Virus record (IMG/VR): IMGVR_UViG_3300037245_003487
Location: 41,441 to 105,440 of that record
Strand: one strand, 5' to 3'
Length of the DNA: 64,000 bases
Origin: a virus
Lineage: Duplodnaviria > Heunggongvirae > Uroviricota > Caudoviricetes
The notes beneath the pieces are model-generated. The model searched no databases, was not told the DNA's origin, and saw only the letters and a program-made list of their open reading frames with translations. Position numbers and translations under genes: made by a program. Positions 3,857-26,497 of the stretch are shown one piece after another (within the stretch, counting starts at the first letter, position 1; each line of letters opens with the position of its first letter).

Positions 3857-3952
3857 ATTCCAACCATCACACTACTTAAAAGCATTGCAGTTATACTTAA
3901 TCCAAACACGCCTAAAGTAAGAATCGCTTTTACCATATTATCACAATCCATA

Positions 3953-4837
3953 TCAATCCCTCATTCCAGTCACTGGATCAGCTCTTAAAACCAAATCATC
4001 TTTTGTTAATTCAAATTCACCATCATTAATCATCTCTAATTGATCTAGATAACAAAACAGGTTTATACAATCACTTTCAGTCCACACGTGATTATACTGT
4101 GTTTCAGCGCCTTTACGATCGTCTAAATCAAAATGTAGTTCTATTATTTCAGCACCGTTATTAATTGCTTGTCCTACTACTTCAGGAGAAACTGAATGAT
4201 CACTGTATCCAACATTCATAAATACTGAACTAAAATTCTTATCATCTGAGAATTTAACCTCACTTCCTATCATTTTCATTCCACTAAATAAATCTTTTGA
4301 TATTAAATCATCAATTTCAAATATTCTACTAACACAGGAATCTTTAATTTTAGTTGGATACTTAGAAACGCAATGCTGAAAACAAACTTCTTCCTCAATC
4401 CTTAATTCATTACATATTTTTATTATATCACTTATATTTTGATCTTCAGCTAAACCACATGATATATAAACAGGCTTTTTCTTACTTAAGCAAGCCATTA
4501 TTAAATCTTTTCGTAAAATATCAAAACTTGAAATTTTATAGAAATCTATATAAGGCTCTACTTGATCTACGCCTTCTAAATAGAATGGAGTTATACCTAT
4601 TTTCAACCCAATCCTTTTACAATAAGATGAAATTAAAGGCAGTAATGTTAAATCAAACTCTCTATCTTTTAAAATTTCTTTATTTTTACCATCTTTATAT
4701 AAAGTATCAGCCTTAAATGCCTGGAATTTTATTCCATAAAAACCTAACTCATAAGCGCTATCTATTAGTTTTTTAATACGCTCTATATCAGAATTTCCAT
4801 TTGAACCTATTTCGGCTATAAACTTTGTATTAGTCAT
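3953..4837 (-). CDS. nonulosonic acid synthase (NeuB/PseI/LegI family)
   Basis: N-terminus FIAEIGSNGNSD...ELGFYGIKFQAF matches the NeuB TIM-barrel signature (AEIG.NHNG...KFQ). Confidence 0.7.
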   Translation of the reverse strand: MTNTKFIAEIGSNGNSDIERIKKLIDSAYELGFYGIKFQAFKADTLYKDGKNKEILKDREFDLTLLPLISSYCKRIGLKIGITPFYLEGVDQVEPYIDFYKISSFDILRKDLIMACLSKKKPVYISCGLAEDQNISDIIKICNELRIEEEVCFQHCVSKYPTKIKDSCVSRIFEIDDLISKDLFSGMKMIGSEVKFSDDKNFSSVFMNVGYSDHSVSPEVVGQAINNGAEIIELHFDLDDRKGAETQYNHVWTESDCINLFCYLDQLEMINDGEFELTKDDLVLRADPVTGMRD

Positions 4838-6095
4838 TCAATGTAAACCTCCCATTATAAACTTTTAAAAACGCTAAATATATATCTTCTATATCGCTAT
4901 CTTCAAGAGGCAAACTATGAAGCAGTGTGATAAATAACTCTTTCTCTTGCATTCTTTTTAAAACAGGAAAATCATCAATGCTATGCTTACCTTTAAAAAT
5001 TGGAAAGGATCCTAAAAAACTTATATACCCATTATTAATCTGTACACCCTTATCAAGTCTACCTTCTTCTTCAGTTAACTCAGCTCTAACAGCTTCCAAA
5101 AACACGTCTCTTTCTATACCAATTGAATCTTCATCATAAATAAATGGAAGTACATAATAAGAGTTGACATCACAATTATTTTTTGCTAAACTTATTCCAG
5201 GAACAGAGCATAATTTATCTGATAATTTTTTAACATTATTTTTTCTTAATAATACAATATCATCAAGTTTCTTTAATTGCTCCCTTAAAATAACAGCCTG
5301 AATCTCTGACATCCTTAAATTCATCCCAGGATAATTGAAGTCTTTAAATTTATTTTGACCTTCTACTGGCATGTCATTAATAACAGCATCTAAATGATTT
5401 CTTCCTAATGCACACTTTATAAATAACTCATCACTATCAGTTACTATCATTCCGCCTTCACCACAAGTTAAGGTTTTGCCTTGTGTAAAACTGAAACATC
5501 CTATATGACCAGCAAATCCAGCATAAACACCATCTCTTTTACTATTTATAGCTTGAGCTGCATCCTCTATCACATATAAGTGATTATCCAATGCTATTTT
5601 ATTTATAGCTTTATAATCATATATATTACCAAATAGATCTACAACTATAATAGCTTTGGTATTTTTAGTTATTTTTCTTTTAACATCTTCAGGATCTAAA
5701 CAAAAGCTATCATCTATATCTGCAAATACAGGTATAGCACCATAATGCATACAAATAGTAGCACTGCATGACATTGAATATCCGGTAACTATAACCTCAT
5801 CACCAGGCTTTAATCCTATAGCTCCACATGCCACATATAATGCCGATGTACAGCTATTAACTGCTAATGCATTATAATTAGGATTGAATTTACGTGAAAA
5901 CTCTCTTTCGAGTTCCTTTACCTCATGGCCTCCCATAAAGTTCGATCCAAAGTTGCCACGAAAAGCTGATAGAACCTTGCTTTCCATAACCCTTTGCACT
6001 GCTTTTGCTTCCTCAGTACCTATTGTTTTTTGACTTGGAAACAGTGTTGTACGAACCTTATTTCCACCTTTTATTGCAAGTTTATCCATTAACAC
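4830..6095 (-). CDS. DegT/DnrJ/EryC1/StrS-type PLP aminotransferase (PseC-like)
   Basis: 421 aa; GDEVIVTGYSM, FSFTQGKTLTCGEGGMIVTD (PLP-lysine region); 8-nt overlap with NeuB-like gene. Confidence 0.7.
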   Translation of the reverse strand: MLMDKLAIKGGNKVRTTLFPSQKTIGTEEAKAVQRVMESKVLSAFRGNFGSNFMGGHEVKELEREFSRKFNPNYNALAVNSCTSALYVACGAIGLKPGDEVIVTGYSMSCSATICMHYGAIPVFADIDDSFCLDPEDVKRKITKNTKAIIVVDLFGNIYDYKAINKIALDNHLYVIEDAAQAINSKRDGVYAGFAGHIGCFSFTQGKTLTCGEGGMIVTDSDELFIKCALGRNHLDAVINDMPVEGQNKFKDFNYPGMNLRMSEIQAVILREQLKKLDDIVLLRKNNVKKLSDKLCSVPGISLAKNNCDVNSYYVLPFIYDEDSIGIERDVFLEAVRAELTEEEGRLDKGVQINNGYISFLGSFPIFKGKHSIDDFPVLKRMQEKELFITLLHSLPLEDSDIEDIYLAFLKVYNGRFTLND

Positions 6096-6345
6096 CTACT
6101 TTTAATAATTCTAAATCAGATTCAAAACATCTAATCTCTTCAATTTTACCATTATTATTTATGTATTCAACATCATAAACATAACATTCTTTTTCTTTAC
6201 ATAATCTCATAATTACTCCATTTAAATCATGAGTAATCAATTTAACTTTATCATCGATACCAAATTTAAAATTCATGGTATTCGGAGGATAACATCCTAT
6301 TTTACCACAATTAGGCGTTCTTATATTCGGGGTACACCAACACAT
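6082..6345 (-). CDS. hypothetical protein
   Basis: 87-aa ORF. Confidence 0.3.
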   Translation of the reverse strand: MCWCTPNIRTPNCGKIGCYPPNTMNFKFGIDDKVKLITHDLNGVIMRLCKEKECYVYDVEYINNNGKIEEIRCFESDLELLKVGVNG

Positions 6346-6357
6346 ATTTTTTCTCCT

Positions 6358-6978
6358 TTATTTTGTAAAATCTCTATATTTTAATTTAGTAATAATCCGC
6401 TCTCCATTTCTGCATTTTAATTCAATTTCTGGTCTAGCAACAATGCCTTCAGCAATAAAGTCACCCCATTGAGAATTAAAACCTTTTTTGGTAATTATTA
6501 TCATATCACGCAATGTTCCGCTCCCTATAATTGGAGTAACTTCAATTTCCAGTTCTAATGCTATTTTTTCTATATCAACTCTATTTAACCACCAGTCACC
6601 TATACTAATGTCAAATAATACAAAATCATTTACATCCTTATATTTTCCGCCTTTTTGTATTTTAGGTCCATAACCCTCTCCATACAAACAAACATCGCAA
6701 TTAAATAATTCTTTAAATTTCTCATGTTTAGATAAAAATTTACTATTCAATTCATTTAGTAATCCGATTGGTATTTGAGCATTATCAGTTTTTCCATTAA
6801 ATAATATTTTGCTATCTTTAAATTGAATTCTTATATTTGTACCATCAATTTTCTCAGTAAAAATCCATTTATTATCCTGTAAATACTCAAATTCTGGTAA
6901 TGAATATTCACTTGTTAATATTTTCATATCATCAGGATCTCTTTTAAAAACTGTTTGTATTTTATGATATTTTTTCAT
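6358..6978 (-). CDS. minimal ATP-dependent polynucleotide ligase (Rnl-like nucleotidyltransferase)
   Basis: Nucleotidyltransferase motifs I KIDGTN, III VLFDISIG, IV IAEGIVARP, V ITKLKYRDF in a 206-aa protein. Confidence 0.55.
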   Translation of the reverse strand: MKKYHKIQTVFKRDPDDMKILTSEYSLPEFEYLQDNKWIFTEKIDGTNIRIQFKDSKILFNGKTDNAQIPIGLLNELNSKFLSKHEKFKELFNCDVCLYGEGYGPKIQKGGKYKDVNDFVLFDISIGDWWLNRVDIEKIALELEIEVTPIIGSGTLRDMIIITKKGFNSQWGDFIAEGIVARPEIELKCRNGERIITKLKYRDFTK

Positions 6979-7156
6979 TTTCTCTCCTTAATTTTTTATT
7001 ATTTATAACAAGACTTTAATTTACCATTTGATTGATATATACCAGAATTAATTAATTCCTGTCTTGCTTGTTCAGGTGTATAATTTTTTATTTCCTCATG
7101 ATGTCTTCTTAATATTTCTAATTCTTTTTTTGTTTCGTTAGATATATATTCTTTTA

Positions 7157-8149
7157 TCACCTTTTATTCCTTAAATATTCTATTACTTTATGAACCTGAA
7201 CCGCATCTTCTGCAGTACATTTAAGTTCTTCATTATTATCTAAATGACTTACAACATTATCATACATATTAGGTAGGCAATTAGTTAATTCTATACTTCC
7301 ATCAATATCTGCAGTTCCAGATAAACTAGCATAATTACCATATGTATCTTCTTGTGTTACTGGGTAGAACTTAAATCCCTGAAACCAATCATCTAGAACT
7401 ATTTTACCTTGTTCTGTAATTATTTCCATTTCAAAACAAGCAGCTTTCCTGCCATCAACTGGAACCATAAATATATTAGGACATTTTTCATAAGACATCC
7501 AGATTGGAACTGTTGGGTCCTCACTTGATAAATCATTAATCCATACAGAGTCGTTCCCTAAAATTCTTCCGTCTCTAAATTCTCCAAAAAACCAATTGCA
7601 AATATCTATAGCGTGTGGTGCGTCCCTTAATAAACCTCTGTTATAATTAAATACAGCACTATAAATATTTCCAAACTTACCTTCCTTTAGATCATTTCTA
7701 AAGGCTTGAATTTCATTAGAATATCTTCTTGTGTAATTTATAGAAATCGGTATTAAATTAGAATAAAATTGATTATAAATATCTCTAGCATTTCTTAAAT
7801 TATCACAAAACGGTTTTTCACAAACAATAATCAGTGGCTCTAATATCTTTATAATTTCACTTAATAATAAATAATGAGAAGTAGTTGCTGATGAAATAAC
7901 TATTATATCTACGCTTTCCTTAATATCTGTAAAGTATAAATAGGGCTTAGTATCCCATTTTTTTGCAGCTTCAATGGCTTTTTCAAAATCCATATCTATA
8001 ACTCCAACTAAATTTATATTTTCATTTTTACAAATTGCATTTGCATGTGTTTTTGGAACAGTGTCTTTACTGTCAAATACAACGTCTTTAGATGTGCCTA
8101 TAGAGCCACATCCTATTATTATTGCATTATATTTCATAAATGACTCCAT
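7157..8149 (-). CDS. Gfo/Idh/MocA family NAD(P)-dependent sugar oxidoreductase
   Basis: N-terminal Rossmann AIIIGCGSIGTSK plus family-typical C-terminal alpha/beta domain. Confidence 0.65.
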   Translation of the reverse strand: MESFMKYNAIIIGCGSIGTSKDVVFDSKDTVPKTHANAICKNENINLVGVIDMDFEKAIEAAKKWDTKPYLYFTDIKESVDIIVISSATTSHYLLLSEIIKILEPLIIVCEKPFCDNLRNARDIYNQFYSNLIPISINYTRRYSNEIQAFRNDLKEGKFGNIYSAVFNYNRGLLRDAPHAIDICNWFFGEFRDGRILGNDSVWINDLSSEDPTVPIWMSYEKCPNIFMVPVDGRKAACFEMEIITEQGKIVLDDWFQGFKFYPVTQEDTYGNYASLSGTADIDGSIELTNCLPNMYDNVVSHLDNNEELKCTAEDAVQVHKVIEYLRNKR

Positions 8150-8652
8150 GTTCTTCTACTAACTATACCATTTATTCCACCTACGGAATAACCAAACTTT
8201 TTCCCTATTTCTTTCTTGGAGCATTTTCCAGAATCATGCATTTTCCTGATCTCTAAAACTTGCTCATTAGATAATCTTGATTGTGAAGATTTCTCTCCTC
8301 TATTTGAACTTAATCCATTTTTAAATGCGTGTATCATATTTTCATGACAGTCACACCATTCTAAATTATCTACATGATTATTATCTTTATTACCATCCTT
8401 ATGATTAACTTGTGGTTTATTACCTATATTAGTTATAAAATGTATTGCAACTAATCTATGGGCCTTACAAGACTTGTTTTTTGAATTACCCCATAAATTA
8501 ACTATACAATATCCATTTTTATCCTTTCTGTGTTTTTTCACAACACCTTTATATAATCTATTCCTTATAGTCCTATCTAAAGATCTGGTTCTGCCATAAC
8601 TTGATACTTGATAATAGCCTTCATAACCATCGATATCTTTCCAAATTTCCAT
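8134..8652 (-). CDS. HNH homing endonuclease with NUMOD4 motif
   Basis: WKDIDGYEGYYQVSSYGR (NUMOD4) then NHKDGNKDNNHVDNLEWC (HNH_3); 16-nt overlap with the oxidoreductase gene; RBS AAGGAG. Confidence 0.75.
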   Translation of the reverse strand: MEIWKDIDGYEGYYQVSSYGRTRSLDRTIRNRLYKGVVKKHRKDKNGYCIVNLWGNSKNKSCKAHRLVAIHFITNIGNKPQVNHKDGNKDNNHVDNLEWCDCHENMIHAFKNGLSSNRGEKSSQSRLSNEQVLEIRKMHDSGKCSKKEIGKKFGYSVGGINGIVSRRTWSHL

Positions 8653-8690
8653 ATTGCTCCTTAATTTAAAACTTTATTTACAAATTTACT

Positions 8691-8718
8691 GGGGACCCTC
8701 TACCACTGAGGTAATAGC
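8691..8718 (-). ncRNA. tRNA 5'-half-like fragment (acceptor + D-arm)
   Basis: Minus-strand GCTATTA-CCTCAGTGGTAGAGG. No matching anticodon or T-arm downstream; abuts the RBS of the HNH gene. Confidence 0.3.
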
Positions 8719-8769
8719 TTATTAGGCTTCTAAATAACTTATCATGAGTATTATTTAAAAGTTTTCCAT

Positions 8770-8805
8770 TACGCTATGCAGGATTCGAACCTACGACAGA
8801 ACCCC
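8770..8805 (-). ncRNA. tRNA 3'-half-like fragment (T-arm + acceptor 3' strand)
   Basis: Minus-strand GTAGG-TTCGAAT-CCTGC-ATAGCGT; no 5' partner found. Confidence 0.3.
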
Positions 8806-8830
8806 TAGTAAATCGATAATTAAATAAAAC

Positions 8831-8948
8831 GGATAGAGAGAAAGGATTTGAACCTTTCATGCCTCTAAGTGTATATATGCGCACAAGTAAATCAACTCGA
8901 AACACTTATTTTTCCATGAGAGCTTAGCCATTCAGCTTATCTCTATCC
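8831..8948 (-). tRNA. tRNA-like gene with an insertion of about 45 nt (118 nt overall)
   Basis: Acceptor GGATAGAG/CTCTATCC, D-arm AGCT-GAATGGCTA-AGCT, perfect T-arm AAAGG-TTCAAAT-CCTTT. No canonical anticodon arm; about 45 extra nt before the T-arm. Confidence 0.35.
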
Positions 8949-9067
8949 TAATTTAACTGAATGTACTACTAGATTTACACTCAGGTAATTTCAATCTTAA
9001 TTAAGAATAACACAATATGTAAATTATGTCAAGTCTATTTATATGTCATTTACATTTAATTTACAAC

Positions 9068-9829
9068 CTAATCTACTCCTGGAATTTTACTTATCTTAGA
9101 GCTATTAGCATCAAGGATATGCGGACATCTCTTGATTAGATCTATAATATCATTATATGTAAAATCAATTCTATTAAAGTAATTAATTATTTTTTTAATA
9201 ACAATTAAATCTTCTGGATGATCTAAGACTAATCTAACTTCTGGCATAAAATCATCTGCAGATTTATTTCCAACCATTATTCCGAGATTGAATAAATTCT
9301 GCAATTCACCTAAGTTATTAATAATATTCCAACCGATATGCGTTCTGTGCTGTTCATTTTCAACAATTTTATTAACTGATAATAAAATATCAGCATCAAA
9401 TATTTGTATATCAGCACCATCAAAAAAGCTTCTTGTTAGAGTATTTGAATAAAAATTATATCCGTAACTATGAAATTCATCTAACATACTATCAATCATT
9501 TCTGGGCAAATTAACTGGCAATCGCTCGTCAAATCAATAATAGTATCATTATAAAAATTAAAATCATCAATCAATCCACATACCCTTTGCATTACATCAT
9601 TCTCGCTACCAATATAATAATGCCATCCATTTTGAATACAAAGCTCAACAAGCTCCTTGTCAGCTGGATTATCAGTTGTTGCAATAAAAATTTTATCAAT
9701 TTTCTTAGATAATCTCAATCGCTCTACCATAAATTCCAATGCTGTCATGTGGCCGAAAACTGTTTGCATGATCTTGCCAGGAAATCTCGTACTACCTAGT
9801 CTACATTGTATAATTGCTATATTACTCAT
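9068..9829 (-). CDS. acylneuraminate/pseudaminate cytidylyltransferase (NeuA/PseF/SpsF family)
   Basis: N-terminus IAIIQCRLGSTRFPGKI matches the CMP-sugar synthetase P-loop-like motif. Confidence 0.65.
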   Translation of the reverse strand: MSNIAIIQCRLGSTRFPGKIMQTVFGHMTALEFMVERLRLSKKIDKIFIATTDNPADKELVELCIQNGWHYYIGSENDVMQRVCGLIDDFNFYNDTIIDLTSDCQLICPEMIDSMLDEFHSYGYNFYSNTLTRSFFDGADIQIFDADILLSVNKIVENEQHRTHIGWNIINNLGELQNLFNLGIMVGNKSADDFMPEVRLVLDHPEDLIVIKKIINYFNRIDFTYNDIIDLIKRCPHILDANSSKISKIPGVD

Positions 9830-12369: not shown

Positions 12370-12381
12370 ATTTATTTACAT

Positions 12382-13901: not shown

Positions 13902-14938
13902 TATAATTCACCTCTACGAAATCTCCTTTCTGATACAGAATCCCTTTTAATAGCATTTAAAAATGGATTTATAGAGAAATAAGGATTATCGTATTTTCTG
14001 ATTGACCAATGCAAATGCGTACCTAATGTTTTGCCTGTATCCCCTACGAGCCCTATCAATGTTTTATAAGTTACTTTAGTAAATCCAATTTTACCATTAT
14101 ACATTGTTTTCAATGGCACTTTAATCTCTGCCAAATGACAATAATTAATTCTAAATGTTTCCATTTTACCTGTGACTTCATTTTTCCTATGACAACGTAT
14201 CACAACTGTATTACCAAATATCTTATGATTATTATAAATACTAATTACATACCCAATTGCTGGAGCATAAACTGCTTTATTTTTCTTATTTACAATATCA
14301 ATTCCAGTATGAAGCTGAGTGAATATTATAATATTTTCTTTAACCTTGACATTATAACATCTACCCCATTCTGGAATATTAAGTACCTGCTTCCAGCTTC
14401 CAGTATCCATACCAAGTCCAGTAAGGAATTCATTTATATCATCAGTTCTATTCAACCAAATTGTTCTGGAATCATATTCACTTGTAATTACAGTATTTGG
14501 ATCAGGCTTACTAAGATCTTTTGGATCTCTAATTGGAAACTTGATCCAGTCATATCTCATTATATAATTACTAATCCCATGTTTCTTAGTATATTCAGTT
14601 AAGTACATCTCATCATCAAGTTTATCAAAAATGTTATCATTAATATCCGTGTTAGTGTCACCAGCAAGTAATTCAATACCAGAGATAATATTTGCTAACT
14701 CAGCATTAACATATTTAACTTCATTTTTAAACTTACTTATAAGAGCTGTTTTAATAGCCAGTTCTTTTTCAAGTTGAGCTTTTTCCTTAGCTAATTTCTC
14801 AGCCTTAGATCGTTCTTGCTCTTCAATTGCTCTTGTTAATGCTAAATCTAACTTGATCTTATCCTGCTTATCTTCGTAAAAGTAAACAGCTAAACCAGCA
14901 ATCATAAATAAAAGCAAGAAAAAACTAATCAATTTCAT
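13898..14938 (-). CDS. M23 family metallopeptidase with N-terminal TM anchor and coiled coil
   Basis: HTGIDI ... GDTGKTLGTHLHWSI (HxxxD and HxH motifs of LytM/lysostaphin family). Confidence 0.7.
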   Translation of the reverse strand: MKLISFFLLLFMIAGLAVYFYEDKQDKIKLDLALTRAIEEQERSKAEKLAKEKAQLEKELAIKTALISKFKNEVKYVNAELANIISGIELLAGDTNTDINDNIFDKLDDEMYLTEYTKKHGISNYIMRYDWIKFPIRDPKDLSKPDPNTVITSEYDSRTIWLNRTDDINEFLTGLGMDTGSWKQVLNIPEWGRCYNVKVKENIIIFTQLHTGIDIVNKKNKAVYAPAIGYVISIYNNHKIFGNTVVIRCHRKNEVTGKMETFRINYCHLAEIKVPLKTMYNGKIGFTKVTYKTLIGLVGDTGKTLGTHLHWSIRKYDNPYFSINPFLNAIKRDSVSERRFRRGELY

Positions 14939-15306
14939 TACATCCCCCTAAAAATATTACTCATTATTTTGCCAAGCTTCTCAGCTCTTTCTTTTTGAAA
15001 TACAATACTTTCTAAACGCAACTCTTCTTTTTTGATTCTTCTTTTTTCTTGTTGTTCAGAGGAGTGATATCTTATTCGAGCTTTTTTATTTCTAAGCAAT
15101 CTGCCTTTCTCTATTTTTTCATTCTCTTCATCAATTAAGGCTTGATTACTAGCACGAATTTCATTATTAGTATCGCCACAACATTCACATATAGCATTAG
15201 TACATTGATTGAATTGTGTAAATGGAACACAGCAATCTTCGCACACTGGCTCTTCACAAGATTCGCATTTCCAATCAGTTTTCTTTCCACAAACATGACA
15301 TTTCAT
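14938..15306 (-). CDS. Cys-rich zinc-finger protein with basic C-terminus
   Basis: CHVCGKKTDWKCESCEEPVCEDCC... then Lys/Arg-rich tail. Confidence 0.35.
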   Translation of the reverse strand: MKCHVCGKKTDWKCESCEEPVCEDCCVPFTQFNQCTNAICECCGDTNNEIRASNQALIDEENEKIEKGRLLRNKKARIRYHSSEQQEKRRIKKEELRLESIVFQKERAEKLGKIMSNIFRGM

Positions 15307-15324
15307 AATTATCTCCTAAAAATA

Positions 15325-15543
15325 TTATAAGTTATTTTGCTTAATGACTATTTTAGTATTTTCAATAAAATAAGAATATTCATGGCTATAATCATTAAAT
15401 TGTTGAGTTAAATACTCTAACTCACTTATTTTAGATAATGCTTTTTTTAAAAGTATTAGCAATTGTTTGTTTTTACCCTCAAGACATTCTATTATGTTTT
15501 CTCCAAACTGAGAGCATTTATTCTTACAAATATAACATTCCAT
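15325..15543 (-). CDS. hypothetical small Cys-containing protein
   Basis: 72-aa ORF, RBS AAAGGAAA upstream. Confidence 0.3.
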   Translation of the reverse strand: MECYICKNKCSQFGENIIECLEGKNKQLLILLKKALSKISELEYLTQQFNDYSHEYSYFIENTKIVIKQNNL

Positions 15544-15636
15544 AATTATTTCCTTTAAGTTGTATTTTTTAACTATTCTTAACAGAGGATAACATAATTT
15601 TTTTATAAGTAAAGTTTATTTACAATTAAATTACCA

Positions 15637-15673
15637 GTTCCAATACAAGAATTCTTTTAAGTTATATTATAAC
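15637..15673. repeat. 37-bp direct repeat copy 1 (GTTCCAATACAAGAATTCTTTTAAGTTATATTATAAC)
   Basis: Perfect 37/37 identity with copy at 15713-15749, separated by 39 bp. Confidence 0.8.
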
Positions 15674-15712
15674 AGTTTTTTATTAATAAAATGATTTTGT
15701 TCTCCAGTGCTG

Positions 15713-15749
15713 TTCCAATACAAGAATTCTTTTAAGTTATATTATAACT
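15713..15749. repeat. 37-bp direct repeat copy 2
   Basis: Identical to 15637-15673; has a terminal 13-nt palindrome GTTATA-T-TATAAC. Confidence 0.8.
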
Positions 15750-15891
15750 TTTAGCTTTAAATTGATCCATAGCATAGTCATTAATTCATTTGCCAATTTA
15801 TAAGAAAAATAACTAAAATCCCGTATTCGCTTATACTTTTCATTTTTAATATCTTTATCTTTATCATTAATATATAATTGTATTTTTCTTG

Positions 15892-16287
15892 TTACCATAA
15901 ATTCTTTTCCTTTAATTCTTTAAGTAGTTGCTTAAAAGTTTTCTCAAGTGCTAAAAACTCATCAATATCACGTTTAACCAATACATTCTTAAGTGCATCG
16001 AGCTTTTCATATTCATCCTCACCATGCTTTTCCTTAAATGCTTTTATGTATTCATGCACGTTACCACTCAAATAACGATTGCAATAAATACATTGTGCGC
16101 TGACATTGAGTAAGTTGAACTTAATTGACTTAAACCTTCTGCTAAATAAATGACCACAATCCATTTTCCTTGGATCTCGTTCTACCTTATTGCAAGATAT
16201 ACATTGCCAGCGATCACGTTCACGAACATAATCACTCATCGCTTTAAGTGCCTTTTTCTCAGCACCTTTCTTTGTTAATTTACCCAT
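15892..16287 (-). CDS. NinG/Rap-like recombination endonuclease (tentative)
   Basis: CISCNKVERDPRKMDCGHLFSRR...CIYCN pattern resembles lambda NinG family. Confidence 0.35.
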   Translation of the reverse strand: MGKLTKKGAEKKALKAMSDYVRERDRWQCISCNKVERDPRKMDCGHLFSRRFKSIKFNLLNVSAQCIYCNRYLSGNVHEYIKAFKEKHGEDEYEKLDALKNVLVKRDIDEFLALEKTFKQLLKELKEKNLW

Positions 16288-16502
16288 TACTCATCCTTAA
16301 TTACTCTTTCAAATTTTCTATAAATTTTATAGTTCTTAATTATTTTCTCTAAATAATAAACATGATCTATATTATCAATATCTATTAATATAGAACTGAG
16401 TAATTCCTTTAGCTTACTCTTACTATCCTCTAACTCTTTTTCTTCATCAAATTCATATAAATAGCTATAATGTCCCATTATATCCTCAACTCCATAAACC
16501 AT
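16287..16502 (-). CDS. hypothetical protein
   Basis: 71-aa ORF. Confidence 0.3.
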   Translation of the reverse strand: MVYGVEDIMGHYSYLYEFDEEKELEDSKSKLKELLSSILIDIDNIDHVYYLEKIIKNYKIYRKFERVIKDE

Positions 16503-16786
16503 ACTTTAATATCATAGATTATTTGCAATAAAAATCTCATAACATCAAAATTCTTTTTTAATAATCTTCTTGCTAATTTTAATAATGATTTCCTGTATTT
16601 GTTTTTAAAATTTTCTATATAATCATTACAATTCTTTCCATACTTATAAGAGCTGCAAAAATTCCACCTCCTTTTAAAATTGCATTCCCAATAACTACTA
16701 ATCATTTGTTTATCTCTAACAAATAAGCAATTATAGCACTTATAGCACTTATAGCACTTTAATTCATTTTTCATTTCTCCTCCCAT
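16478..16786 (-). CDS. hypothetical Cys/Tyr/Lys-rich protein
   Basis: Contains 3x tandem 9-bp DNA repeat tatagcact (16731-16760) encoding CYKCYKCY. Confidence 0.3.
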   Translation of the reverse strand: MGGEMKNELKCYKCYKCYNCLFVRDKQMISSYWECNFKRRWNFCSSYKYGKNCNDYIENFKNKYRKSLLKLARRLLKKNFDVMRFLLQIIYDIKVWFMELRI

Positions 16787-16928
16787 AATAAATCATATAA
16801 ATAAAACAACACTAAATTACTACAATTAAATATCACTGTGAACCAAATAGGCTGTTTCACAAATACACATAAGGTAAATGTGAAGCCTATCATTATTACA
16901 CGCCATATAATACTTTTCCAAATTCTTC

Positions 16929-18257
16929 TCAAACTCTTAATATATCCTTTATTTCATTTTCATAATCAATACCTTGATATATTTTATCGCCATAAATACA
17001 TTTACCATCAATAACTACGACATGATTTATATTAAATCTATTATCTGTAGACTTAACTACTGCGAAGCCTTCTTGCCAGTCAGGGTTAGAAACCTTACCA
17101 GGGACTCTGTCATCAGTATGACATGTACACCCTATCTGAGTAACAGTTATTTGCTCATTAGTTCCCGTGAACGTCTTGGATAACCTTTCTATACTATGTC
17201 CATGAGCTTGAATCACAGATACATTAGTCCTTTCAAGTTCCTTCTTGATATTTACATATTCGCCATGAATGACTTTAAGTTTATTATTAATATAATATTC
17301 ACCACTTGGATAATCTTCAATAAAAGTAATTCCTAGATCATCCATTCCCAATAAATGATTCAATGAATAAGGAATATGATTAGTTCCATAAGGCTTAACT
17401 TGATACGCATAAAGCATATGCTCTTGAACAGCTTTATTTAGTCTTATCTCGTGGTTGCCATTTAAAAATATTATATCACCATCAAATATATTTCTTATTT
17501 TACTTAACAAATATCCTAATTCATTTATCGCTGGCTGCAAAGTGAAATAAAATTCCTTCTTTTTTTCATACTTACTAGCCTCTGTCATATCAAGCATATC
17601 GCCAAGTAAAATAACTTCATCAGGGTTAATATCCTCGATAATCTGTAGAATAACATCAATGCATTTCCTATCATGGAAAGGTATTAATTCTCCAGTCTGT
17701 TGGTTCTTTAAAAAACCTATTTGAGAATCAGCAAATATTAATGATGTTTTAATATTGCCTTTAAGTCTTAAACTATTCATCTTATTAAATGAATCAGCTC
17801 TTTTTTTAGGTAAGTTAAATCTAATTGGTTTAATTACTGGCAAGATCTGTTTGTCTGGATTACGCTTCACCATTTCAGCTTTAACTGACCAATTGCCAAG
17901 CCAACTTGATATCTTATGTTCTTTTATGATCCATTCTTTTTCGTTGATGCCAGCTCGTTTTTTAAGCTCCTCAAGCGATGTTATTTTAGTATCTGTAACA
18001 GTTACTTCTTTTTCATTATGCCTTTGTTCTGATTCTAACTTTGGTATTTCAATTTTTGGCATTTCTACATAAACGTCATTTTTTGGAAAAATATTCTCTC
18101 TATTATTCCAAATAGAATCAGTTTTCTGATCATGATAAAACCTTCTGCCGCAATCTTTACATTTTCTATCTAAAACCATATATCCTAATTTCTTGATAAA
18201 AACTTTACCTTTTGAATTACTACTATTACTTTCACATCTTGGACATTTTATACCCAT
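16929..18257 (-). CDS. calcineurin-like metallophosphoesterase with N-terminal zinc ribbon
   Basis: CPRCES...CKDCGRRF then MPP motifs ILLGDMLD, FLNGNHE, HGHSIE. Confidence 0.6.
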   Translation of the reverse strand: MGIKCPRCESNSSNSKGKVFIKKLGYMVLDRKCKDCGRRFYHDQKTDSIWNNRENIFPKNDVYVEMPKIEIPKLESEQRHNEKEVTVTDTKITSLEELKKRAGINEKEWIIKEHKISSWLGNWSVKAEMVKRNPDKQILPVIKPIRFNLPKKRADSFNKMNSLRLKGNIKTSLIFADSQIGFLKNQQTGELIPFHDRKCIDVILQIIEDINPDEVILLGDMLDMTEASKYEKKKEFYFTLQPAINELGYLLSKIRNIFDGDIIFLNGNHEIRLNKAVQEHMLYAYQVKPYGTNHIPYSLNHLLGMDDLGITFIEDYPSGEYYINNKLKVIHGEYVNIKKELERTNVSVIQAHGHSIERLSKTFTGTNEQITVTQIGCTCHTDDRVPGKVSNPDWQEGFAVVKSTDNRFNINHVVVIDGKCIYGDKIYQGIDYENEIKDILRV

Positions 18258-18266
18258 TACTTCTCC

Positions 18267-18752
18267 TTATTTAAATATTATAATCATTGAAGGAAACGGT
18301 GCTGAATTTTTAGATTCACTAAATTTTAACCTTCCCTTTATAAATCTTATTTTAACTCCTGGCCTGGTCCTATTATTTTCTCTATCCCAAATATATTTAT
18401 GAAATCCAATAGTGTCAGTTCTAGCTGGTAAAAGAAAAACGCCCATAGTCTCAAAGTCTCTTCCTTTATTTATTTTAATTTCATTAATCATTTTTTCAAC
18501 CCATTTTTTCCATTCGGAATAAGGGGGGTTGCACCAGGCCACTTCACCATACCAACTTTGTTCTAAACCATTATTATCTTTTGTATAATAATTATTACAT
18601 TTAGCATTTTCCCAATTAGCAGCAACATCAATGGTAAAACAAAATTCTTCATTTAATTCTTTATATAGATCATTTGGCGTTTCCCATTCATCTGAATTAC
18701 TTGTAAAACAAGCTTCTTTATTACTCATTAATTTCACTCCATTTCTTATCAA
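18267..18752 (-). CDS. dam: phage-type DNA N6-adenine methyltransferase (Dam, N6_Mtase family)
   Basis: DEWETPNDLY...FTIDVAA...NAKC...WCNPPYS. Confidence 0.75.
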   Translation of the reverse strand: MIRNGVKLMSNKEACFTSNSDEWETPNDLYKELNEEFCFTIDVAANWENAKCNNYYTKDNNGLEQSWYGEVAWCNPPYSEWKKWVEKMINEIKINKGRDFETMGVFLLPARTDTIGFHKYIWDRENNRTRPGVKIRFIKGRLKFSESKNSAPFPSMIIIFK

Positions 18753-19065
18753 GGGCTTTTTCTATTAATTGTATTATTCTATCGCATCCAGACCAACCCA
18801 CATCAAACAACGCATTAGTCTCTTTTACCATATAAATCAAAGCCTTAATCATTTCAGGCGCACAAGCAATTAATGTTTGATTTGCTTTAGCTTGCTTCAA
18901 TGTTATTGTATCTTGAAGTCTCTCATAATTTTTACTAAGTGGATCATTCACTTTAACTTTAACGATAGTAGCTCCGCCTAAATTAAATATATATCCACAA
19001 TCACATCCATTTATATCATTTAAACAAACACCGCCCCATTCTCCATCTGTAAAATCAAATTTCAT
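18721..19065 (-). CDS. hypothetical protein (C-terminal LIEK..KKWSEI motif)
   Basis: 114 aa; shares C-terminal peptide with adjacent gene. Confidence 0.3.
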   Translation of the reverse strand: MKFDFTDGEWGGVCLNDINGCDCGYIFNLGGATIVKVKVNDPLSKNYERLQDTITLKQAKANQTLIACAPEMIKALIYMVKETNALFDVGWSGCDRIIQLIEKALDKKWSEINE

Positions 19066-19394
19066 ATTTCACTCCATTTTTTACCAGTTATTTTTTCTAT
19101 TAAATTAACTTCTTCTTCCATTAATTCATTAAAAAACTTTAATCCTTTTTTATCCTTTAAATTTTTAACATAAATTTCATACATAAATTTAGATTTATCG
19201 ATTAAATTTTTTAATAACTCATCTTCATAATTATCAACTGGATTACGTGGTTTGTATCTTACACAGTTTATTCCGTGTTCAGGCTCATCTATAACCGCCT
19301 CATCACAACTTGACACGTAATAAGCTCCATCACAAGCATCCATTATAGTATACAAGATACAGCTACCGCAACATTTGTTTGCTATTTGCTTCAT
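19062..19394 (-). CDS. hypothetical Cys-rich protein (C-terminal LIEK..KKWSEI motif)
   Basis: 110 aa. Confidence 0.3.
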   Translation of the reverse strand: MKQIANKCCGSCILYTIMDACDGAYYVSSCDEAVIDEPEHGINCVRYKPRNPVDNYEDELLKNLIDKSKFMYEIYVKNLKDKKGLKFFNELMEEEVNLIEKITGKKWSEI

Positions 19395-19488
19395 AATTAC
19401 TCCTTTAATAAAAATAGCAGGATTTTCACCCTGCCATACTTTAACATTTTTATTTAATTCTGTAAAGCCTATTTACATTTGTTTTACA

Positions 19489-22400
19489 TTAACCGCAACG
19501 GCTCCATGAACATTTTGGGCATTTAACACATCCTTCTTGGAATATCAACTCTCCACCACACTGGCATTTCTCTGTAGACTTAGTGCCTTCTTTAATGTAC
19601 TTCTTTAATGCTCTAGCTATACATTTCTCAAAGTCAGCTAATAACCCACCAGACTTATTTATCTGCTCAATAATAAAGTGCAATGGAACTTGATGTCTTA
19701 AGCAGGTTGAAACTAATCTAGTTACAGCTTCATGAGTTTTATTATCAAATATAGCATTAAGATCTGATATAATAATTTCATCTTCAATTTCTATTTGATA
19801 TCTACCTTTTGTAGCCTTGATAATATTAACTTCTTTAACTTTCGATGGTATATCTACATTTTCTATTTTTCCAGCAAAAGTTTCATAAGGACAATCATCT
19901 ACAATACCAATAAATACAATCCATTTCTCGCCATTAACTTGCACTCTATGAACATCATGATGAACAGATTTAGGTCTTTTAGGAGCACATCTTTCGCAGT
20001 CCTCATCGTTGGTAATAAGTATACCTTCTCTGCTACCTTTACGATAAACAGTTACACCGATTATACCTTTCTTATGAGCCGCTTTATAAATATCACTTAT
20101 TTCTTTCTTTGATATATTTTCAGGTAAATTCAAGGTTTTGCTTACTGATAATGATACATTGTTAGCAACTTTCTCTAGTATATTTAAATGCTCCATTGGA
20201 GTTAAATCATTTGATACTTGAAAAATAGCTTTATGTTCATCTGATAAATATTTAGATTCTTGACATGATCCAGTTAAGGAAACTTCTAATAAAATCTTAG
20301 ACTTATCCTCAAGATAATTTTCAGATAAAAACTCATCAAATACAGGATCTGTTTGATACATAATCTCATACTCACCATTACCTAACTCAACTTTTCTTTT
20401 ATACGTTAAAGCGAATACAGGCTCTATTCCACTTGATGTGTCTGCAATCGTTGATATACTTCCTGTCGGTGCAATTGATGTAATACATGAATTTCTAATT
20501 CCATATTTTTTTATATCCAATTTTAATTGTTTAATATTTACATCTAAAATTTTATCTTCAGTAAAAAATCTTTTATTGGCATCCATAAAAACATCATAAT
20601 CAAACGCTGGATAAGGACCTAGTTTTACAGCAATTTTAACAGATACTTCCATTCCTTTAATTGTCATATATCTATTTATCTTTTCAGTAAAATTCAAAGC
20701 TAGTTGAGAGTCATAAGGGATTCTTAATTTATACATAGCATGAGCTAATCCCATTTCTCCTAATCCTATAGGGCGTATCTTTTCTGTAACTTCTTTAATT
20801 TTGGGAATAGGAAATTTATTTACATCTATTACTTTATCAAGGAAAATAACAGATCTTTTGATTTGTCTGCCTAATTCATCCCAGTTAAATTCACCATCGT
20901 CAACAAATTTAACTAAATTTATAGAACCTAAGTTACAGCTTGCATAAGGCACATTTATAAACTCAAAACAATTTGAAATATTTAATCCATTACACCAAAA
21001 TGTATGTGAATCATTATCAACTGTAATATCAAAAACTTCCATTTCACCTAATTCTGTTTTTTCTTTAATATCAAAATTCACTTTATTTCTATTGGATTTT
21101 TTAATTTCTTTTACTATTTTAGCTAATTTATCATTTTTATATTTCTGTATAAATGCAATATCATGGTAAAATAAATCTCTATCAGATGTTATATTTAAAT
21201 CATACGACTTTTTACTGATATACTCTCCATTATCCCATTTTATTTTTGATGGTTTATTAGTTGTGTAATAAGATTTAATCCCTATGGAAGACAACATTAT
21301 CTGTACTTGTTCTATCAATTTAAGTGACGTAGCCTTCAAAGTAACTCTTTCGCCACAGATAGATCCGTTAGCTGAATACAATCCTCTTAAAAATGATTTA
21401 ATTGAATTTGATGTTGTATACATATATCTTTCAGGTATTTCTCTTATAGGCAACAAATCTAACTCTTCTTTTTTTACATTAGTTTTAACTCGGTAAGTTT
21501 TAGGATCACTTGGATAGGTTTTTTTAAGAATAAAACTACTTATCTCTGAATTAAAATAGTCGTGGTCATTTTCTCCTATAGTCAAGTAAACATCATAATT
21601 TTTACCTGGATTTAAATTTCTCGATCCATCGCCAACAATTAATCCATCCATAATTAATTGAAGATCAAATTCATCAAACTTTTCATAATTGCCAACCAAC
21701 ACATCTATATTTTCAGCTTTTTTTAGTTCTATTTTTAATCCTTTAGACATAATTTGATGATTGTCGGTAGCATATAAATGCCCTGCGCTAGTAACCCACT
21801 TATGAACTTTTTTTATTCCACTCGACCATTTATTAGTAATTTTAGTCCATCCTTCGCCAGACCATACACAATCGCCTATATTCAAATCCTTTAATTGTTT
21901 AGGTCCATATGGCGTTAATAGTATTGAAAATTCTGGAATACATGGATTTGGGCATACAGTGGTATCAACGTTCTTAACCGAACACCTATCCCATGCGATA
22001 TCATAATTTATCAAACTTGGCTCTGCATTAGCCCATGATAATTCTATAATTTCATCCCATAACTCTTCAACGCTTACTTCCTGAAAAGTACCATCTATTA
22101 ATTTTATACTTTTACCGTTTTTAAATTTAACCTTATGCACATCATTAGGTTGATTATCTAGTTTATCGTAAAAATCATTATACATTTTAACAGATAGATT
22201 AAATCTTGCTAAAGGAGCTTTTATTTTACCATCTGCGACCAATTTTTTTATTTCCAAAGACAACACCTTTGATCTTATAAAATTTAGTATATCCGGGTGA
22301 TATACACTAAGTATTCCTCCGCCAGCTCCTTTTCTAGCCCCACCTTGATTTATGCTATTCAAAACATCATTAAAATTAGATAAAAATGGCATTGGACCAG

Positions 22401-22755
22401 ATGATTTAGCATTATTTAATGTTTTAATTATCTCATAAGAGCTTCTTAATGGAGAAAAATCATATCCAACTCCTCCACAAGCCTTAGTTACCAAAGCACA
22501 CTCTTTAATTGAATCATAAATTCCTTCTATACTATCTTCTAATTTCATAGGAAAACATGATGATAAAGTTCCTTCCCTTTTACCACCAGTATTAGCATTC
22601 ATTAATGTAGGTGTTGAAGGTATAAACCTCATTTCTAATATATCATTTTCTATTTCTGGGTAGATATCTGACACTCTTTTAGTAAGTTCTTCCCAGGACG
22701 ACTCACCTTCAATAAAATATCTATCTCGTAATAATTTTAATATTGACTCTTTCAA
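19489..22755 (-). CDS. ribonucleotide reductase catalytic subunit (probably class II NrdJ-like), interrupted by an intein
   Basis: Extein motifs ...CPNP|C...FEFINVPYASCNLGSINL, GLGEMGLAHAM, C-terminal CxxC...CxxC. 764 aa after intein removal. Confidence 0.75.
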   Translation of the reverse strand: MKESILKLLRDRYFIEGESSWEELTKRVSDIYPEIENDILEMRFIPSTPTLMNANTGGKREGTLSSCFPMKLEDSIEGIYDSIKECALVTKACGGVGYDFSPLRSSYEIIKTLNNAKSSGPMPFLSNFNDVLNSINQGGARKGAGGGILSVYHPDILNFIRSKVLSLEIKKLVADGKIKAPLARFNLSVKMYNDFYDKLDNQPNDVHKVKFKNGKSIKLIDGTFQEVSVEELWDEIIELSWANAEPSLINYDIAWDRCSVKNVDTTVCPNPCIPEFSILLTPYGPKQLKDLNIGDCVWSGEGWTKITNKWSSGIKKVHKWVTSAGHLYATDNHQIMSKGLKIELKKAENIDVLVGNYEKFDEFDLQLIMDGLIVGDGSRNLNPGKNYDVYLTIGENDHDYFNSEISSFILKKTYPSDPKTYRVKTNVKKEELDLLPIREIPERYMYTTSNSIKSFLRGLYSANGSICGERVTLKATSLKLIEQVQIMLSSIGIKSYYTTNKPSKIKWDNGEYISKKSYDLNITSDRDLFYHDIAFIQKYKNDKLAKIVKEIKKSNRNKVNFDIKEKTELGEMEVFDITVDNDSHTFWCNGLNISNCFEFINVPYASCNLGSINLVKFVDDGEFNWDELGRQIKRSVIFLDKVIDVNKFPIPKIKEVTEKIRPIGLGEMGLAHAMYKLRIPYDSQLALNFTEKINRYMTIKGMEVSVKIAVKLGPYPAFDYDVFMDANKRFFTEDKILDVNIKQLKLDIKKYGIRNSCITSIAPTGSISTIADTSSGIEPVFALTYKRKVELGNGEYEIMYQTDPVFDEFLSENYLEDKSKILLEVSLTGSCQESKYLSDEHKAIFQVSNDLTPMEHLNILEKVANNVSLSVSKTLNLPENISKKEISDIYKAAHKKGIIGVTVYRKGSREGILITNDEDCERCAPKRPKSVHHDVHRVQVNGEKWIVFIGIVDDCPYETFAGKIENVDIPSKVKEVNIIKATKGRYQIEIEDEIIISDLNAIFDNKTHEAVTRLVSTCLRHQVPLHFIIEQINKSGGLLADFEKCIARALKKYIKEGTKSTEKCQCGGELIFQEGCVKCPKCSWSRCG
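20971..21942 (-). mobile_element. intein with LAGLIDADG homing-endonuclease domain inside the RNR gene
   Basis: Starts CIPEFSILL after NP; DOD blocks LIMDGLIVGDGS and FLRGLYSANGS; C-terminal block FDITVDNDSHTFWCNGLNISN followed by Cys+1. Confidence 0.7.
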
Positions 22756-23111
22756 TTGTTCTCCTTTTTAGTATTTTTTTCCATATACTTCATTTTTAAT
22801 TCTATATGTTTTTCAATATCAATACCTAATCCACCACATAAATCAAATAATCTGATAAATGTATCGCAAATTTCATCCTCAAATTGATCTTTTATTTCAG
22901 TTTCAAATAAAGATTTAAATTCCCAGCCATCTTTTAATAATTGATTATACATATCAAAATCAGTAAATCTACCCTTTCTATGGGCCTCTATAGCCTCACC
23001 AAGCTCCGACACTACTAACATAAGTAATTCACCTACATTACGATCTTTATCCCAAAAACCTTTCTCTTTTGCCGTCTCATGACACTGTTCTACTAAGTTC
23101 TTTAATTCCAT
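22752..23111 (-). CDS. mazG: MazG-like nucleoside triphosphate pyrophosphohydrolase
   Basis: EKGFWDK...ELLMLVVSELGEAIEAHRKG signature. Confidence 0.7.
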   Translation of the reverse strand: MELKNLVEQCHETAKEKGFWDKDRNVGELLMLVVSELGEAIEAHRKGRFTDFDMYNQLLKDGWEFKSLFETEIKDQFEDEICDTFIRLFDLCGGLGIDIEKHIELKMKYMEKNTKKENN

Positions 23112-23121
23112 TTATTCTCCT

Positions 23122-23358
23122 TTAATTATTTATTATTATCGTACCATAATTAGTAATATTATATTCGTTCTTTATTATTGGTGTCGCAGTAGGTTCTACC
23201 GTTGGTATGGGAGTCATTAATTCCCTGGAAATTCTATTACTTTGCATTTGACATGGAATAGTGCATAAAAATACAAGTATTACCATAATTACAAGTATAG
23301 CAATTAAAGTTTTTGCGTCTCCATCACTATAATCATCGTCGCCATCATAATATCCCAT
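23122..23358 (-). CDS. small membrane-anchored Pro/Thr-linker protein, paralog 1 of 3
   Basis: TM helix, PT-rich linker, C-terminal NYGTIIINN. Confidence 0.35.
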   Translation of the reverse strand: MGYYDGDDDYSDGDAKTLIAILVIMVILVFLCTIPCQMQSNRISRELMTPIPTVEPTATPIIKNEYNITNYGTIIINN

Positions 23359-23630
23359 TATAATTCTCCATAATTATTTATTATTACTGTTCCGTAATTA
23401 TTTATTACTATATCACCTTTCATCGGTGTTGGAGTATGGGAAGGCGTTGCAGTAGGCGTAATGCTTAATTCTCTATATTTCCTTATTGCTCTTTCTTTTG
23501 AAATACTACTAGTTGTTGAAGTTATCATTCGGGTTTTATCACGATTCATTTGACATTCAATCGTTAATAATGTTACAATTATTACTATTATTATAATTGT
23601 TATTATAATTCCTTTGTAATTTTTACCCAT
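23358..23630 (-). CDS. small membrane-anchored Pro/Thr-linker protein, paralog 2 of 3
   Basis: TM, TPTATPSHTPTP linker, INNYGTVIINNYGEL. Confidence 0.35.
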   Translation of the reverse strand: MGKNYKGIIITIIIIVIIVTLLTIECQMNRDKTRMITSTTSSISKERAIRKYRELSITPTATPSHTPTPMKGDIVINNYGTVIINNYGEL

Positions 23631-23950
23631 TACAATTCTCCATTATATATATTAATTATTCCACCATCATGGTTATCGATTATAATATTACCTCGTGGTG
23701 TCATTGTTGGCGTTGGTGTTACATAGTAATATCCTGTTGGTATTGGAGCAAATGTCGGTGTTGGAGAACTACATTGATCCTCATTTTTATCCGTATTTCC
23801 TCCTTTTAAAGCCATTGATCCAGAAAAAACAACAAGAAATATCCCTACCAATCCAAATACTACGACTACGCTATCTTTTTCCTCATGCACTAAACATAAA
23901 AGCACAACTATCACTATTACACTTATTAATAAAAAAATCACTGCCCACAT
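23630..23950 (-). CDS. small membrane-anchored Pro/Thr-linker protein, paralog 3 of 3
   Basis: Two TM helices, PTPTFAPIPT...TPTPTMTP, IINIYNGEL. Confidence 0.35.
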   Translation of the reverse strand: MWAVIFLLISVIVIVVLLCLVHEEKDSVVVVFGLVGIFLVVFSGSMALKGGNTDKNEDQCSSPTPTFAPIPTGYYYVTPTPTMTPRGNIIIDNHDGGIINIYNGEL

Positions 23951-26349: not shown

Positions 26350-26497
26350 TATTGCCAACAGTAGGACTTGAACCCACGAATGCCAACATACACAAGTTAT
26401 CAACTTATAAATGCTTGTTTAAATGCTGATGAAACATTCAATTCAAATAGGCAACCTCCAGTTTAATCTGGTGCTCTGCCACTGAGCTATATTGGCG
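26350..26497 (-). tRNA. tRNA-like gene with an insertion of about 70 nt (148 nt overall)
   Basis: Acceptor GCCAATA/TGTTGGC, D-arm GCTC-AGTGGCA-GAGC, T-arm GTGGG-TTCAAGT-CCTAC. No canonical anticodon arm; TGTTGGCA occurs twice flanking the T-arm. Confidence 0.35.

Follow-up and report, generated by a model that had tools for sequence, protein, structure and literature searches.

A perfect repeat-spacer-repeat unit between two transcription units of an uncultivated contractile-tailed phage: a candidate cas-less CRISPR mini-array

The virus record IMGVR_UViG_3300037245_003487 of IMG/VR represents an uncultivated, contractile-tailed bacteriophage with a genome of about 122.5 kb and about 30% G+C. 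The stretch analysed here, called the window below, comprises 64,000 nucleotides (nt) of it (positions 41,441 to 105,440 of the record), and all genes in the window lie on the minus strand. The subject of the present analysis is a unit of 112 bp at 15637-15748, which consists of a 37-bp sequence, GTTCCAATACAAGAATTCTTTTAAGTTATATTATAAC, at 15637-15673, a unique spacer of 38 bp and a second, perfect copy of the 37-bp sequence at 15712-15748. This unit is a candidate that looks and is placed like a CRISPR mini-array. Judged from its sequence, the chances are about even that it is a cas-less, single-spacer CRISPR mini-array which uses the Cas proteins of the host. Membership in the mini-array class cannot be claimed, because the match to a host repeat, by which that class is defined, is missing. 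The parts of the unit are listed here in the direction of the genes, followed by the palindromes within the repeats.

15712-15748, minus strand: repeat copy 1, in gene orientation 5'-GTTATAATATAACTTAAAAGAATTCTTGTATTGGAAC-3'; it holds the stop codon (15737-15739) of an upstream open reading frame (ORF) of 53 amino acids
15674-15711, minus strand: spacer of 38 nt with the minus-strand sequence AGCACTGGAGAACAAAATCATTTTATTAATAAAAAACT, with no second occurrence in the window when up to 3 mismatches are allowed
15637-15673, minus strand: repeat copy 2 (gene orientation), which does not differ from copy 1 at any position and is followed after 12 bp by the upstream element of a predicted promoter
15647-15656 and 15722-15731, no strand assigned: 10-bp loop-less perfect palindrome AAGAATTCTT, which contains an EcoRI site; in both repeats
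15661-15673 and 15736-15748, no strand assigned: 13-bp palindrome GTTATA-T-TATAAC at the plus-strand 3' end of the repeat; in both repeats

The 37-mer occurs exactly twice in the window, with 0 mismatches between the copies, and no further copy appears there even with 3 mismatches allowed. Two matches were obtained in 0 of 100 dinucleotide shuffles, the pair is the sole case of close perfect direct repeats of at least 16 nt in the window, and about 20 kb of flanking sequence contains no other close direct repeat. A preliminary description of this DNA had reported two perfect 37-bp repeats with a unique spacer; the pair and its identity hold, while the second copy lies at 15712-15748 and not at 15713-15749, and the spacer measures 38 and not 39 bp. 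Its statement that the repeat and spacer lengths fit CRISPR arrays is borne out by the 37/38/37 geometry, and so is the placement upstream of the minus-strand gene 15325-15543, since the unit sits within the 193-bp intergenic region 15544-15736 and is non-coding apart from the last 12 nt of the 53-amino-acid ORF, whose last three codons and stop are supplied by the repeat copy at 15712-15748. This is the geometry of mini-arrays, in which non-coding DNA holds two to three direct repeats of about 24-48 nt with unique spacers of much the same size between them, and it agrees with that of the cas-less array of cyanophage N-1 (PMC4916379). Compared with its two 38-nt flanks, the spacer shows 13/38 and 14/38 identities, the null being 11.2 +/- 2.9. 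The A-B-A layout with a unique B, together with a spacer that matches neither flank, excludes a simple tandem duplication; such a layout is the expected product of adding one repeat and one spacer.

An artefact of one assembler was also considered and is ruled out, as a second assembler reproduces the unit. The identical unit is spanned by the JGI contig Ga0484908_000069, and the Logan contig SRR11832402_6319 (122,431 bp) has its start and its end inside the two repeat copies, as expected when an assembler with k=31 meets a 37-bp repeat on a circular or circularly permuted genome. Over more than 20 kb, each of these contigs and the window are 100.000% identical; it follows that they represent the same strain, probably from the same sample, and carry no information on evolution or conservation. 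Conservation across independent samples was for that reason dropped as evidence.

The termini GTTTCAAT...ATTGAAAC are common to many Cas6-processed class 1 repeats, as can be seen from published repeat tables (PMC4916379, Table 4; PMC5637354, Table 7). The boundaries of the phage repeat were set solely by where the identity between the copies ends, and its termini agree with this pattern at 13/16 positions on either strand (plus strand GTTCCAAT / ATTATAAC; minus strand GTTATAAT / ATTGGAAC), which makes them near-canonical, not exact. The same score is reached by 2 of the 127,678 other 37-mers of the window (1.6e-5), neither of them intergenic, and GTT...AAC ends are found in 0.019% of the window 37-mers. 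The termini of class 1 repeats as in type I-B, I-D and III arrays, with a 5' end GTT(T/C)CAAT and a 3' handle of 8 nt reading ATTGAAA(C/G) or a close variant, can therefore be recognised in the repeat. When the repeat was aligned with 13 published 37-nt cyanobacterial type I-D ('DR5') repeats, the gene orientation outscored the reverse for 12 of them, and in gene orientation 26/38 alignment columns matched the repeat of Calothrix PCC 7507, a score reached by 0 of 3000 shuffles and by 0.05% of the window 37-mers. The internal layout runs parallel to that of type I-D repeats as well, with an AT-rich 5' part, a palindrome at nt 18-27 in gene orientation (AAGAATTCTT, the type I-D hairpin being at nt 19-29) and an 8-nt handle at nt 30-37 (ATTGGAAC vs ATTGAAAC). 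In the genomes of GTDB at least 10 genuine arrays have repeats that start with GTTCCAATA, and the other end of the phage repeat, ATTATAAC, is 1 nt off the tag ATTAAAAC of one such array.

If the unit is a mini-array, its mode of action could be envisaged as follows. No intrinsic terminator was found in 15200-16400, and with no terminator at the 3' end of the long minus-strand operon that precedes the unit, read-through transcription is proposed, which would yield a 5'-repeat-spacer-repeat-3' RNA in gene orientation. A host endoribonuclease of the Cas6 type, from a type I-B, I-D or III-like system of class 1, would cut each repeat 8 nt from its 3' end, and the product would be a CRISPR RNA (crRNA) in which the 38-nt spacer is preceded by the handle AUUGGAAC and followed by a 3' tail that stems from the repeat. 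The crRNA would be loaded into host effector complexes and then used against a competing virus or element; alternatively, it could tie up or re-programme the host Cas proteins, as has been described for Racr and Cracr RNAs. The gene orientation is assigned to the repeat because all genes are on the minus strand and the alignment with published repeats is better that way. What is said here of transcription and RNA processing, of the orientation and the Cas type, and of target and host is inferred.

A number of results have to be set against the mini-array. The unit has only two repeats, and the terminus and alignment tests described above were devised after the sequence had been seen and are not mutually independent. 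By sequence, the repeat resembles the general GTTnCAAT...ATTGAAAC class, and the likeness is confined to the termini and the 5' part. When 12 published DR5 members were built into an nhmmer profile, no match on 15637-15748 was obtained at E<=1000; the profile misses the repeat because the conserved G:C hairpin core is lacking, the place of the DR5 core ATCCCTATCAGGGATTGAAAC being taken by AAGAATTCTT. With the hairpin core absent and the profile silent, membership in the DR5 (type I-D) family is ruled out. The Rfam CRISPR-DR models gave no match on the repeats at E<=10, and what Rfam returned at gathering and permissive thresholds were transfer RNAs (tRNAs) and one sub-threshold CRISPR-DR49 match outside the repeats. 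The exact 37-mer and its sub-words are absent from IMG/VR, and the exact 37-mer has 0 matches in a set of 185,579 genomes, with every species represented once. A three-copy anchor of 10 nt (the first 10 nt of the repeat, periodic) found 50 loci in genomes, about 15 of them genuine arrays, none of which is related to the phage repeat beyond the anchor, and a three-copy anchor of 13 nt gave in metagenomes one match, a false positive that represents a 69-nt (23-amino-acid) coding tandem repeat in an ORF of 537 amino acids. When the 112-nt unit was compared by BLAST with cultured phages and with plasmids, chance AT-rich matches and nothing below E=0.3 were returned. Searching the repeat against genomes and Rfam models, along the lines of the check that the preliminary description had proposed, has brought no related repeat.

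The same can be said of the spacer, for which a search against phages had been proposed: its halves have 0 exact matches in IMG/VR, no target below E=0.3 was found by BLAST in cultured phages, and its best match in about 78 kb of the genome and in the sequences of relatives (26/38) corresponds to the 95th percentile of shuffled spacers. A spacer matching a related virus or mobile element, as is usual in mini-arrays, was thus not found. No cas genes were detected in about 78 kb of the genome, that is, among the ORFs of the window and in about 14 kb beyond its ends. Folding of the RNA of both strands was no better than that of shuffled controls. The 13-nt palindrome GTTATA-T-TATAAC is present at the plus-strand 3' end of the repeat, as had been described, at 15661-15673 and 15736-15748; it forms no stable RNA hairpin, and the idea that it serves as the hairpin of a crRNA found no support in the folding of either strand. 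Loop-less palindromes without an RNA fold suggest recognition of double-stranded DNA by a dimeric protein rather than a crRNA hairpin. Taken as a whole, the suggestion of a mini-array is favoured by the termini, the type I-D alignment and the A-B-A layout, and a host-identical repeat and a spacer target were not found for it. The scans of the collections required exact words, so that a repeat differing at a few scattered positions would escape them; for this reason, and with a possibly unsampled host lineage and about 78 kb of the genome covered, the negatives are of limited weight. Further matches were discarded on inspection: a two-end anchored, two-copy pattern gave 4 matches in IMG/VR, all due to chance and in coding DNA, and the 'Cas10' reported by PADLOC on the ORF 47155-47865 is a low-complexity artefact of a lysine-rich region in an HNH endonuclease.

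The surroundings of the unit have to be described before the other explanations can be weighed. The features concerned are given here in the direction of transcription.

15737-15898, minus strand: upstream ORF of 53 amino acids, called by the JGI and Logan gene callers
15586-15624, minus strand: predicted promoter of the 72-amino-acid gene, of an architecture that recurs in at least 6 intergenic regions
15325-15543, minus strand: Cys-rich ORF of 72 amino acids, first gene of the next transcription unit, no family match
14938-15306, minus strand: Cys-rich ORF of 122 amino acids, directly after the 72-amino-acid ORF and paralogous-looking to it

The predicted promoter of the 72-amino-acid gene comprises TGTAAATAAA (15624-15615), a -35 hexamer TTTACT (15613-15608), a 16-nt spacer and an extended -10 element TGT-TATCCT (15594-15586). 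With a predicted start at about 15579, the repeats fall at about -58 to -94 and -133 to -169, and their centres near -76 and -151. The promoters of this phage have a common layout, in which TGTAAATAAA is followed by TTGAC(A/T), 17 nt and a TATAAT-like hexamer, often directly after a stop codon or a terminator hairpin; the hexamers of the 72-amino-acid promoter (TTTACT, TATCCT) are weaker than those of the others (TTGACA/T, TATAAT-like). All exact copies of TGTAAATAAA (7/7) are on the minus, or gene, strand and 5-6 of them are intergenic. Promoter sites with this element lie at 8673-8682, 12371-12380, 15615-15624, 40935-40944 and 45036-45045, and similar ones at 33378-33501 and 37207-37347. A generic sigma-70 scan showed no enrichment in the region of the unit. 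Without the 112-bp unit the region would resemble the other compact promoter regions of the phage, so that the unit looks like a module added between transcription units.

The chief rival takes up the alternative of the preliminary description, a pair of operator or iteron sites for a phage regulator. In this explanation the two repeats are binding sites of a phage or host regulator that acts on the neighbouring weak promoter of the 72-amino-acid gene as activator or repressor; a phage regulator could possibly be one of the Cys-rich proteins of the downstream operon. We consider this explanation unlikely but still in contention. The TGTAAATAAA promoter follows the end of the unit after 12 bp, and its weak TTTACT and TATCCT hexamers would fit a factor-dependent promoter. 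Within each repeat there are two perfect palindromes that have no loops and do not overlap (AAGAATTCTT and GTTATA-T-TATAAC), a combination found in about 0.1% of 37-bp windows, many of which are the repeats themselves. A third palindrome, the 14-bp, AT-only TTTTATTAATAAAA at 15678-15691, is located in the spacer. The spacing of 75 bp corresponds to about seven helical turns, which would place bound dimers on the same face of the helix, where they could cooperate or loop the DNA; that no RNA structure is predicted and that no CRISPR relative appeared in any collection searched agree with such a role as well. On the other hand, a regulator site needs far less than two copies that agree at all 37 positions, the non-palindromic GTTCCAATAC among them, and the CRISPR-like termini (1.6e-5) and the type I-D alignment are left unexplained by this reading. 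The unusual dyad symmetry stands beside a predicted promoter in two copies, and the 64-kb window shows no extra copy and no enrichment of half-sites at other promoters or intergenic regions. Dispersed copies at other promoters, which according to the preliminary description would count against CRISPR, were thus not found, and their absence speaks against operator sites. No recognisable DNA-binding domain was found in the neighbouring small ORFs, and two homologues of the 122-amino-acid gene in other phages (45% identical) have no repeat pair upstream, which also counts for the mini-array.

It is rather improbable that the unit is a non-functional scar or recent insertion without an RNA or protein partner, for instance a remnant of illegitimate recombination, or a small segment between two transcription units that is mobile or arose by recombination. 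Only two copies exist, in a single phage strain and with no relatives to show conservation, their perfect identity implies that they are recent, and the junction of transcription units is a position where insertions are tolerated. Simple tandem duplication, however, is excluded, 37 bp is far too long for the target-site duplication of a transposon and 38 bp too short for an element, and the CRISPR-like termini and the perfect palindrome pair, two independent non-random properties, are not expected of a random scar. A very improbable explanation is a CRISPR-derived decoy, either a Racr-like RNA anti-CRISPR or a Cracr-like RNA, which would sequester host Cas6 and backbone subunits or steer them by partial complementarity to a host cas or defence promoter, and would not target another virus. 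The decoy is a sub-case of the mini-array, draws on the same sequence evidence and cannot be separated from it by sequence alone. It would be in keeping with a spacer that matches no virus searched, with flanking small ORFs of no assigned function, which are the usual anti-defence setting, and with a repeat that is degenerate with respect to known families and has no G:C hairpin, as viral decoys can be (PMC10651486; bioRxiv 10.1101/2024.10.29.618823). Nevertheless, Racrs are by definition solitary, whereas two full repeats are present here, the 38-nt spacer is of full length while those of Cracrs are typically shorter than normal (an example with 21-24 nt is given in bioRxiv 10.1101/2024.10.29.618823), and no known anti-CRISPR or Aca protein is encoded nearby. 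Finally, it may be imagined, as a distinctly improbable case, that the repeat is an uncatalogued AT-rich 37-nt variant of the GTTnCAAT...ATTGAAAC class, with an AT palindrome in place of the G:C hairpin, which belongs to an unsampled low-GC host and is seen only through the phage that borrowed it, or that a CRISPR-derived pair has been re-used as double-stranded DNA sites at a phage promoter. Such re-use as binding sites, the more unusual of these two ideas, would explain why CRISPR-like termini and loop-less palindromes occur together.

The 53-amino-acid ORF upstream of the unit overlaps by 7 nt with a NinG/Rap-like gene (15892-16287) and is the last gene of the minus-strand operon of about 8 kb, in which no intergenic gap of 40 bp or more occurs (15737-23950). 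Downstream of the unit, the starts and upstream regions of the 72- and 122-amino-acid genes are 73% identical at the DNA level. No family match in Pfam, PHROGs or NCBIfam was obtained for the neighbouring ORFs of 53, 72, 122, 71 and 102 amino acids, and no PDB match by sequence for that of 72 amino acids. Small ORFs rich in CxxC motifs are located around the unit on the minus strand at 14938-15306, 15325-15543, 16478-16786 and 19062-19394. Their sequences suggest a small family of zinc-binding proteins, and the Cys-rich neighbours could bind DNA in addition to zinc.

The gene content of the phage includes a contractile tail with Mu-like baseplate parts, DnaB, SSB, seven tRNAs, an intein-containing ribonucleotide reductase, enzymes of nicotinamide adenine dinucleotide (NAD) salvage and a cluster of sugar-modification genes. 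No close cultured relative was found, there are almost no relatives in IMG/VR or in the protein collection, and searches with NinG and an M23 peptidase gave no close relatives. For the phosphoesterase 7 distant homologues are present, on contigs which are not syntenic with the phage, and the relatives among cultured phages by tail sheath and DnaB are uninformative on the host. One distant relative contains beside its phosphoesterase gene (L066:10865-10972) a 55-nt perfect direct repeat with a 53-nt period, which is a true tandem duplication and unrelated in sequence to the unit. A complete-looking nonulosonic-acid pathway of the pseudaminic or legionaminic type is encoded at 486-9829 of the window (minus strand) and at L067:11473-14181 beyond the window start; it includes an acetyltransferase, a PseB-like dehydratase, NeuB, a DegT aminotransferase, a GFO/IDH/MocA oxidoreductase and a CMP-sugar synthetase. 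Beside these genes lies that of a 902-amino-acid Maf/MptE-like glycosyltransferase, of the kind used in flagellin glycosylation. The sugar pathway may hint at a flagellated, flagellin-glycosylating host, or at modification of the virion or the host surface.

Several other loci of the window deserve mention. A 415-bp intergenic region (8653-9067, minus strand) contains two motifs resembling the T-arm of a tRNA, GGTTCAAATCC and GGTTCGAATCC, with no tRNA called, and at 8681-8813 the Y RNA-like family YrlA is matched below the Rfam threshold (24 bits, E=0.007, gathering score 69); the phage encodes RtcB and an RNA ligase, which are often companions of Y RNA-like RNAs of the YrlA type. The Rfam tRNA match at 26353-26496 (minus strand), in which a 71-position model is stretched over 144 nt and which ARAGORN does not call, may represent a tRNA with an insertion or intron inside it. 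HNH-type endonucleases are encoded on the minus strand at 1245-2054 and at 47155-47865; these two genes, 45 kb apart, share a 107-nt segment with 81% identity, which is consistent with mobile homing endonuclease genes. In the ribonucleotide reductase (1088 amino acids; 19489-22755, minus strand) a LAGLIDADG intein is indicated by precomputed Pfam annotation, which was made for an identical gene. Adjacent genes for a nicotinamide phosphoribosyltransferase and a PRPP-synthetase-like protein (38067-40570, minus strand) form an NAD salvage pair of the kind used by phages to restore NAD.

Should the unit be a mini-array, it would add a moderately large (122-kb), virulent-looking phage to those which use the host CRISPR machinery without cas genes, and its repeat would serve as a direct probe for the host, as an array with this repeat in the same metagenome would identify both the host and its CRISPR type. 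It would also mean that screens based on similarity to known repeats miss units of uncatalogued repeat families. Should it be a regulator site, it would represent ordinary phage gene control. Since mini-arrays in phages have been described before, either outcome would be an incremental addition.

Operator and iteron sites are usually 12-22 bp long and imperfect, number at least three or are spread over several promoters, and lie beside the gene of the binding protein. The unit shares with phage operators, activator sites and iterons the direct repeats, the internal dyad symmetry, the position next to a predicted promoter and a spacing close to whole helical turns; it differs from them in that a single locus holds both copies, which are perfect and 37 bp long, and in that no DNA-binding gene could be recognised. 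The Racr elements are solitary repeat units, and the pipeline by which they were discovered sets aside repeat pairs within 100 bp as mini-arrays (PMC10651486); a single unit with no second repeat within about 100 bp is not what is seen here, where two full repeats lie 38 bp apart. In the Cracr elements the pseudo-spacers are short and match promoters of host cas or toxin genes in part (bioRxiv 10.1101/2024.10.29.618823). Both are, like the unit, intergenic and cas-less phage elements derived from repeats, often somewhat degenerate compared with host repeats and placed among small anti-defence genes. They act as RNAs that bind host Cas proteins, whereas for the unit the action as RNA is only proposed, and in contrast to them it has two full identical repeats and a full-length spacer. 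Racr, Cracr and mini-arrays are recognised through similarity to known host repeats, and no such match was found for the present repeat. The repeats of virus-borne mini-arrays are identical to host CRISPR repeats and most of their spacers target related viruses (PMC11656645). Among them, those of the Saccharolobus portogloboviruses SPV1 and SPV2 resemble the unit in the absence of cas genes, in their full repeats, in the low number of spacers (1-2 in SPV) and in the proposed reliance on host Cas proteins (PMC11656645), but neither a host-identical repeat nor a spacer target in a related virus was found here. A further known system is the cas-less array of the Nostoc cyanophage N-1, which is transcribed and has 37-bp repeats of the form GTTnCAAT...ATTGAAAC with spacers of 29-37 bp that have no database match (PMC4916379). 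That array has five repeats, four spacers and an AT-rich leader, whereas the unit has two repeats, one spacer and no separate leader. The N-1 repeats are clearly similar to the arrays of its known hosts and keep the CCCTATCAGGG hairpin, in place of which the AT palindrome AAGAATTCTT is found here; the repeat of the unit is missed by the family profile and the Rfam models. It aligns with repeats of the N-1 family over up to 26/38 columns and does so in their functional orientation, and the unit shares with the N-1 array the absence of cas genes from the phage sequence examined, repeats of 37 bp and ordinary phage genes on either side.

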